DNA of 64,000 nt from Eledone cirrhosa (Eukaryota), in assembly GCA_964016885.1 (NCBI GenBank), contig OZ024765.1, positions 10,168,001 through 10,232,000 of the forward strand. Reading direction: 5' to 3'. Under the pieces are notes generated by a model. That model saw only the letters and a program-made list of their open reading frames with translations, had not been told where the DNA came from and did no database searches. The position numbers and the translations under genes were made by a program. Below are positions 4,901 to 7,900 of the stretch, piece by piece. Numbering within the stretch: position 1 is the stretch's first letter; each line of letters begins with the position of its first letter.

Positions 4901-7900
4901 GATCGTCGGCGACTAAACCAGCAACTCCCACCAAGCTAGCTTGGTGAGGAGGGTCATATTTGGACACCCTGCCAGATGAAAAACAAAACCTAGCAAAGGG
5001 CAGAGGAACTCAGCAGAATCAATGGCCATCCAAATAGTAGTTTTTTTTTGTTTTTTTTTTGTTTCTTTTTTCCACCTGGGAGTGAAAGGCCTCCAGTTGT
5101 TGTCACAACACCTTTCTAGGAGAGGGAAACTCTGAAAAAAAACCTACAGCTTCGGAAGCATCCGATGATGTTGACCAGTTCTCCTTTTCGGGTTGTGTTT
5201 TTAATGCTCAGAGAGTGGGATTGGTCGAGTGCAAGGCCTTTCTCCACTTAAAAAAACCTTCAAAGCACAGGCATTGCTTGATCAGGATATGTTACAGGTT
5301 CGTGTGGCTGGCCGTAGCCTAAAAGTAAACCAAACTGTATAATCTGACAAGCGATTGCAGTACTCTTAGCAGAATTTGCAGCCACCATATACATGTATAT
5401 ATACATGTGTGTATGTATATAGATATATATGTATGAGTATATATTTGTGTGTGTTTATGTATGTGTGAATATGTGCCAAACAAGGAGTCAAGTGAACCGT
5501 TCAGTTGTGTCAAAGACCCCAACAATCTCCCTAGTGCTGGTGCCACTATAAAATGCACCCAGCGCATTCTGCAGAGTGCAGGAACGTTTGTAAGCAAGAT
5601 GCAAATATAAGAGCAGAACTTACAGCCATTTGACTTTCTACAAAATACTGGTTATGTTTCAGGATTAGCTTCACTTTCCCATAACTGATTGTACACAGCT
5701 GAAATAGAGAGAGAAGATAGGGTATGTGAGAGAGTACACAGCTGAAATAGAGAGGGAGAAGATAGGGTATGTGAGAGAGTACACAGCTGAAATAGAGAGG
5801 GAGAAGATAGGGTATGTGAGAGAGTACACAGTTGAAATAGAGAGAGAAGATAGGGTATGTGAGAGAGTACACAGCTGAAATAGAGAGAGAAGATAGGGTA
5901 TGTGAGAGAGTACACAGCTGAAATAGAGAGAGAAGATAGGGTATGTGAGAGAGTACACAACTGAAATAGAGAGAGAAGATAGGGTATGTGAGAGAGTACA
6001 CAACTGAAATAGAGAGAGAAGATAGGGTATGTAAGAGAGTACACAACTGAAATAGAGAGAGAAGATAGGGTATGTGAGAGAGTACACAGCTGAAATAGAG
6101 AGGGAGAAGATAGGGTATGTGAGAGAGTACACAACTGAAATAGAGAGGAAGAAGATAGGGTATGTGAGAGAGTACACAACTGAAATAGAGAGAGAAGATA
6201 GGGTATGTGAGAGAGTACATAGCTGAAATAGAGAGGGAGAAGATAGGGTATGTGAGAGAGTACACAACTGAAATAGAGAGAGAAGATAGGGTATGTGAGA
6301 GAGTACATAGCTGAAATAGAGAGAGAAGATAGGGTATGTGAGAGAGTACACAACTGAAATAGAGAGGGAGAAGATAGGGTATGTGAGAGAGTACACAACT
6401 GAAATAGAGAGGGAGAAGATAGGGTATGTGAGAGAGTACACAACTGAAATAGAGAGAGAAGATAGGGTATGTGAGAGAGTACATAGCTGAAATAGAGAGA
6501 GAAGATAGGGTATGTGAGAGAGTACACAACTGAAATAGAGAGGGAGAAGATAGAGTATGTGAGAGAGTACACAGCTGAAATAGAGAGGGAGAAGATAGGG
6601 TATGTGAGAGAGTACACAGCTGAAATAGAGAGGGAGAAGATAGGGTATGTGAGAGAGTACACAGCTGAAATAGAGAGGGAGAAGATAGGGTATGTGAGAG
6701 AGTACACAGCTGAAATAGAGAGGGAGAAGATAGGGTATGTGAGAGAGTACACAGCTGAAATAGAGAGGGAGAAGATAGGGCAAACTGTACTCCGCAAAAA
6801 AATTGTTGTCAGAAAATTCTAAAATTTTCAAAAAATATAGATCGAGAGAGAGGAAGGATAAAGAAGGAATAGAGAATGTTTTGAAAAGAAAAGAAAAAAA
6901 CAATAAGACAGATGTGTGATTAGTGTTGGCTTACCTTGATAAATTGCACAATACCATCAGGTAAAGTTGTTTTGTTCAATCGCCGCAGGTACTCTATGAT
7001 GTCGTTGGTCTGTAAACCCACCGACACAGCAGCGTAGAGTGAGTATGCAGTGAGTTTGTATTCATGAATGTGTTCTGGACGACAGACAGGCTGGGGGAGA
7101 GAGAGAGAGAAGAGAGAGGGAATCAACCACTACTGTTCTCTGAGTTTGGAACTAGCTGTTGCAACGGCAGGAGCTCAGCTGTCGGGGTCCTGACTCTTTC
7201 ATATATATGAATATATATATATATATACACACATATATATATATACACATATACATATATATGCATAAACATATATATATACATACACATACATATATAT
7301 ATATATATACACATACACATATATATATACATACACATACATATATATATATATATATACACATACACATATATATAAACATATACATATATATATATAC
7401 ATATATATACATACATATATATATATATTTATACACATATACATATATACACATATACATATTTATATATATAAACATATACATATATATATATATACAT
7501 ATACATATATATATATACATACATATATATATATATACACACATATATATATATATACACATATACATATATATATATATATACATATATATAAACATAT
7601 ACATATATATATATATACACATATACATATATATACACACACACATATATATATATACATATATACACTCATATATATATATACATATACACACACATAT
7701 ATACATATACACACACATATATATATATATATATATACACATATATATATATACATATATACACACACACACACATATATATATATATACACACATATAT
7801 ATATACATATACACACACACACACATATATATATATATATGTGTGTGTGTGCCCAAGATTCGATTCTGCCACATCCACACACACAAACACATACACCTAC

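Follow-up and report, generated by a model that had tools for sequence, protein, structure and literature searches.

A mirage-type minisatellite reiterates the intron 5/exon 6 acceptor of an octopus XPB/ERCC3 gene

How an essential gene selects one acceptor when its intron is filled with near-identical copies of that acceptor is the question raised by intron 5 of XPB/ERCC3 in Eledone cirrhosa, which lies within a 64,000-nt stretch of genomic DNA (the window, to which positions refer unless another record is named). By its sequence, the gene is XPB/ERCC3: the best single-copy matches of the exon 5 translation were octopus XPB, at 98%, and human and yeast XPB structures were also matched. Using protein P0004 in a tblastn search, we mapped 21 coding exons across the window and the adjoining stretch, so the exon numbering of the initial annotation fits. 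XPB is apparently single-copy in this genome; a second copy was considered and rejected, since beyond the C26 locus we found just one weak 36-aa match on C2. Among the 40 splice sites of the gene that were checked, the exon 6 acceptor alone lies in a junction duplication, the other listed row being a low-complexity GTT run. Minisatellites are abundant here, with 21 arrays making up 25% of the window. One further array in the gene, a 116-nt x 2.7 repeat (G000:C26:10159438-10159750), stops 18 nt before another XPB acceptor and does not include its AG. The plus strand at 21230-22414 holds an extended open frame that encodes a DUS3L CCCH zinc finger and is divergent from XPB; its in-frame 39/78-nt tandem repeat (21907-22260) is likely a coding repeat.

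The initial annotation had described an intron full of tandem copies of its own 3' splice site, and this description was borne out. TRF placed the array at 5691-6780 with a period of 45, 24.8 copies and 96% matches, occupying 1,082 of the 1,236 nt of intron 5 and leaving the first 154 nt outside it (Table 1). Its minus strand can be divided into 25 acceptor-like units, each 43 or 45 nt long: the real acceptor, whose AG has its G at 5699, is preceded by 24 copies, of which 23 are decoys with AG and one has AA. TTTCAG terminates 24 of the units (the 23 decoys and the real site) and TTTCAA terminates the copy at 5832. Each unit is built from 8 nt of the start of exon 6, an 11-nt segment with CTCAC, a pyrimidine tract and TTTCAG, of which 35-37 nt are intronic, and a branch-like YTNAY motif is present in 24 of 24 full units (CTCAC in 23, CTTAC in one) and absent from the 5'-most partial unit. 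Directly after each array acceptor stands CTGTGTAC or a 1-nt variant, and the coding sequence of exon 6 continues after the last copy only. The unit composition given in the initial annotation therefore holds, with one CTTAC and one TTTCAA as the exceptions, as does its statement, upheld by a unit-by-unit split, that the last copy alone leads into real coding sequence. Between 6755 and 5699, AG occurs in array units alone. Neighbouring units have been homogenised, the 24 full units falling into nine sequence types with units 2-5 as identical neighbours.

Also correct was the observation that some decoys are in frame while the nearest, 43 nt upstream, frameshifts. Nine of the 23 decoy AGs keep the frame (the six 5'-most and those at 6311, 6047 and 5918); the other 14 shift it, among them the three whose AG is closest to the real site. 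The array further contains no stop triplet in any of the three minus-strand frames, a property that had been annotated and that we confirm as such, but it fails as a sign of coding: stop-free sequence also arose in 38% of 20,000 shuffles of one array unit. A coding role read from the stop-free frames was accordingly rejected, the 420-aa frame having one weak Pfam match only. Just 5' of the array, 6798-6838 is a piece of a dispersed repeat, other copies of which continue into palindromic G/C-rich ends.

Table 1. Features of the exon 5 to exon 6 interval of XPB/ERCC3, in window coordinates.
Feature	Position	Strand	Evidence or remark
XPB/ERCC3 coding exon 5, 156 nt, strong donor AAG/GTAAGC	6935..7090	-	Donor score 10.6 vs training median 8.5; covered by spliced contig X4
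First 154 nt of intron 5, outside the array; dispersed-repeat match at 6798-6838	6781..6934	-	Many contigs match, then diverge
Minisatellite of the mirage type, 24.8 copies, unit length 43 or 45 nt	5691..6780	-	TRF; DNA runs X1-X3 (joints between units, depth)
24 upstream acceptor copies, 23 with AG and one with AA (5832)	5742..6755	-	15 of 23 at or above the real acceptor on a rough PWM
Last unit, the authentic 3' splice site; putative branch-like A 29 nt upstream	5699..5741	-	Spliced contig; DNA contig link to exon 6
XPB/ERCC3 coding exon 6, 75 nt, donor GCT/GTAAGT, purine-rich past base 8	5624..5698	-	Purine fraction 0.57 vs 0.20 after decoys

Short-read joints and depth in DNA runs X1-X3 support the array as genuine rather than mis-assembled. 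The tandem joint, stepping back 45 nt, was seen in three of three runs, and a DNA contig from X1 connects exon 6 to the last array unit. For the contigs listed, we then divided contig depth by the depth of the unique flanks and set the ratio against the assembled 31-mer multiplicity. Depth ratio and multiplicity agreed within 0.4 copies in four of the five distinct contigs listed (10.4/10.4, 9.4/9.3, 7.6/7.9 and 8.2/8.0), the fifth, a composite from X3, giving a ratio of 10.6 against a multiplicity of 8.0. The three listed contigs with one difference all lay 3.5-4 copies above the assembly (12.8/8.9, 6.2/2.7 and 6.9/2.9), which would reflect a second allele of greater length or a small degree of under-assembly. 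From these values, depth not being a direct copy number, we infer an array of some 25-29 copies on average over both haplotypes. An assembly artefact might still be suspected from the fact that the runs come from one sample, possibly the assembly's own source, and that no single record spans the whole array. With the 45-nt joint in all three runs, a DNA contig tying exon 6 to a unit, and depth ratios that equal or exceed the assembled multiplicities, the array is not over-expanded by assembly and we give an artefact essentially no credence. The RAD runs X5 and X6 had zero reads over 5540-5780 and so have no bearing on allele length. At 6923, a G/A difference among runs of one sample suggests two haplotypes here.

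Which acceptor the gene uses is answered by the spliced contig X4 (2,542 nt, depth 9.3), which exits exon 5 at 6935 and goes straight into exon 6 at 5698 with no unit inserted, then passes from exon 6 (5624) to exon 7, the positions being contiguous in the record. This supports the earlier proposal that, out of about 25 near-identical acceptors, it is the last that the gene selects; 5698 is the acceptor of the majority transcript, as seen in one contig. X4 represents one sample at low depth with no recorded library type, and we took it as cDNA-derived because its exons are joined; as XPB is apparently single-copy in this genome, the contig should not stem from a retrocopy. Its sample code differs from that of the DNA runs, and the array may be absent from its donor animal. 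Assembled contigs lose rare forms, so that a depth of 9.3 describes the majority transcript only and minor isoforms are possible. No X4 contig falls on a repeat unit, and gaps in contigs were not counted as evidence.

To consider how the last site could win, we scored splice sites with rough PWMs, which are partly circular in being trained on consensus-picked sites of the same genome (83 acceptors, 128 donors). On this scale the real acceptor scored 15.2, a value equalled or exceeded by 15 of the 23 decoys, and the decoy copy at 5875 matches it fully from -43 to +8. Splice-site sequence therefore cannot decide, and with decoys as strong as the real site the downstream context must. None of the 23 decoys has AG/GT, all being AG/CT or AG/TT, and the GT and GC sites of the array scored from -2.0 to -12.0, all under the lowest training donor (1.7, n = 128). 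The absence of both a donor in any unit and an AG/GT removes micro-exon and ratchet models and leaves the exon 6 donor as sole partner. The initial annotation had suggested that the units support stepwise splicing. Although a regular ladder of acceptors with a branch-like motif per unit would suit stepwise (recursive) splicing or micro-exons, the 0/23 decoys with AG/GT, a best internal GT/GC of -2.0 and an intron of merely 1.2 kb make this highly improbable, and that suggestion is not supported.

We propose instead that the exon 6 donor would be the only possible partner for every array acceptor, the units being donorless, and that the sites are likely defined across the exon, because both flanking introns (1,236 and 1,124 nt) exceed 1 kb. 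Only the real acceptor leads into purine-rich sequence (a purine fraction of 0.57 versus 0.20, over 40 nt). Such purine-rich exon sequence would be a candidate SR-type enhancer, and the CU-rich tracts candidate PTB-type silencers. The winner would be the acceptor nearest the exon 6 donor, which is the sole one placed before purine-rich exon sequence rather than CU-rich repeat, and any rare use of a near decoy would produce frameshifted RNA for removal by NMD. Distance may not suffice on its own, because splicing to the three AG decoys closest to the real site would yield exons of 118, 163 and 251 nt, all within the ordinary size range. For human genes, PMC9225289 places exon definition above a 250-nt intron boundary, where sites closest across the exon are favoured, and its section 9 describes competing 3' sites as preferring the upstream one, a preference that exon definition merely reduces. 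Given the ordinary decoy exon sizes and this merely reduced upstream preference, the sequence of the exon 6 body probably helps site choice. Thus, of the earlier claim that the last site is chosen by exon definition alone, the choice is supported by X4, while "alone" is questionable. RNA structure was set aside as a selector: the array folds weakly (-21.5 kcal/mol over 301 nt, without a shuffle control), with small GUAC stems.

The strength of the decoys raises the possibility of an array that is functionless yet leaky or mildly harmful, with decoys taking a minor share of splicing or slowing it and XPB mRNA falling with copy number, unselected. Its nearest decoys outscore the real site and would make exons of normal size, and minor forms would be invisible in contigs of depth 9.3. 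In the human 6-16 and CBS minisatellites, moreover, which lie on the donor side, one or two pseudo-sites close by are used beside the real one (PMC1557585). In the F7, LMNB2 and PDGF arrays of the same paper, however, the authentic site alone is used, mirages are reported to yield no aberrant mRNA (PMC3902484, PMC3087553), and X4 is unbroken across the junction, and we consider such leakage unlikely.

More doubtful still is a selected regulatory device, in which the array would act as a copy-number rheostat sending XPB pre-mRNA to NMD or making repeat-extended XPB, as the initial annotation had also entertained. The 23 intact strong acceptors, nine of them in frame without a stop, would provide for this, and the depth of some contigs hints at a longer second allele. 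Nevertheless, neither the stop-free state nor the in-frame share departs from chance, even the shortest in-frame product would add 73 low-complexity residues to a conserved N-terminal region, and the octopus proteins listed cross the exon 5/6 junction without an insert. The canonical junction is the only one seen, in one low-depth contig blind to minor isoforms, and rheostat and repeat-extended isoforms alike are left without support. Comparably improbable is a length-polymorphic TFIIH attenuator, in which longer alleles of strong, CU-rich decoys would send a graded fraction of XPB pre-mRNA into NMD; if this were true, repeat number would tune a helicase essential to transcription and repair in an octopus.

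We therefore favor, with a probability of roughly 0.8, a minisatellite that arose from the intron 5/exon 6 junction, is spliced at its last copy in the one transcript seen, and is probably a by-product of repeat expansion that is tolerated and has no function. Consistent with a by-product, the in-frame share of 9/23 approximates the one third expected by chance, and AG has been lost in only 1 of 24 copies. Weighing against it, RNA support comes from one contig of depth 9.3 in one sample, and human competing 3' sites still lean upstream (PMC9225289). In this by-product account, a short tandem duplication would first have captured the splice junction, and slippage or unequal exchange would then have amplified it, as with many other minisatellites in these introns. 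GTACA occurs both in the 5' flank (6781-6791) and in exon 6 (5691-5695), at matching array ends, and in the flank it precedes 5 nt that stand in place of the 11-nt CTCAC segment of the units. The GTACA pair is possibly a microhomology scar of the first duplication. An origin of the unit from a dispersed element was rejected, the only matches outside the locus being two weak ones of 79% on C390 in a search that skips simple repeats.

The amphioxus "mirages" comprise Adh3, troponin C, the globins BflGb6 and BflGb9, and PGBD5, and splicing is reportedly undisturbed by them (PMC3087553, PMC3902484). The XPB array is such a mirage minisatellite, related to human F7 and CBS splice-site repeats. Like the amphioxus cases in those two papers, it consists of tandem repeats that span an intron-exon boundary (24.8 units), most of which keep their splice signal (AG in 23 of the 24 upstream copies), and regular splicing is retained, for the majority form and in one contig. 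The structure that the initial annotation took as unusual is thus real, while its kind had already been described, which that annotation did not recognize. As in BflGb6, the intron 3' end and exon start are repeated; that amphioxus array differs in having 3-6 copies of 150-160 bp, compared with about 25 copies here, in a mollusc, of a 43/45-nt unit with 8 exon bases. Our array is not a new system, and would weigh more only if decoy use scaled with allele length, but it extends mirage repeats to a cephalopod. It also constitutes a natural minigene, with 23 equally strong acceptors in 43-45 nt steps facing one donor, for the question of distance versus exon-body sequence. In the literature searched, which leaves most subscription journals outside, we found neither a cephalopod mirage case nor a further acceptor-side array.

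Site choice in human CBS 844ins68 has been attributed to G-runs and hnRNP H, an explanation inapplicable to the XPB array because its unit is G-poor (71 G in 1,090 nt). PMC2630376, citing Romano et al. 2002, reports use of the distal copy of the duplicated junction in 844ins68; its text names the sites donors, yet the paper it cites is on 3' site selection. The two loci share a duplicated intron/exon junction, a strong preference for the distal copy and a normal mRNA, and they differ in copy number, two there and 25 in octopus XPB. The human splice-site VNTRs in PMC1557585, namely F7 IVS7 (37 bp), CBS intron 13, 6-16, LMNB2 and PDGF, with up to 25 pseudo-sites, are likewise similar in that pseudo-sites are reiterated and splicing uses the exon-adjacent site exclusively or for the most part. 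Unlike the XPB array, those VNTRs reiterate the donor, whereas here the acceptor is reiterated, where a simple first-AG scan from upstream would err.

To place the array in its genome, we surveyed 147 exon matches with at most 294 borders, splice sites being inferred from sequence. The myosin part contributed 62 entries from 63 of 72 rows, nine being dropped as large exons or already covered. The kinase part contributed 85 of 138 rows, 23 being dropped and the top 30, mostly large exons, being screened by TRF only; in that screen no junction array was seen among the 30. Duplications of an exon end including its donor were found in four of the 147 exon matches. Three of these, two from myosin genes and one from a kinase gene, have two copies each (L167:1103-1205, L025 near 1400-1520 and L139 near 730-1220). 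The fourth (L085:1386-2035, G000:C1:322457784-322460390) is a MAP-kinase-like exon behind which its own 3' end and donor recur in nine degenerate copies, and is an older donor-side mirage. The resulting frequency, 4/294 or 1.4%, compares with 1.1-1.5% per site expected from array density. No acceptor-spanning duplication was found among the 147 surveyed exon matches. Junction duplications thus recur in this genome and a fresh 25-copy acceptor array is less common; with zero acceptor and four donor cases in 147 exon matches, arrays on the acceptor side may be less frequent, or less well tolerated, than those on the donor side.

Other repeats in the survey lie close to acceptors. At L141:688-1176, some 21 pyrimidine-rich units of 22 nt, each with TAG at its end, come just before a receptor-kinase-like exon; these acceptor-like units stop 35 nt before the acceptor and are not exon-derived. 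A 41-nt x 17.8 array at L094:483-1196 ends about 10 nt before a presumed kinase-exon acceptor. Eight candidates (L019, L023, L043, L094, L112, L113, L115 and L147) were dropped, having the splice site outside the duplicate or being weak, and the remaining survey rows were put aside, from their listing alone, as intronic repeats. Within the window, a 112-nt x 3.3 array at 45896-46265, to which no exon is assigned, carries a CAG/GTAAG-like motif in two of its units on the minus strand.
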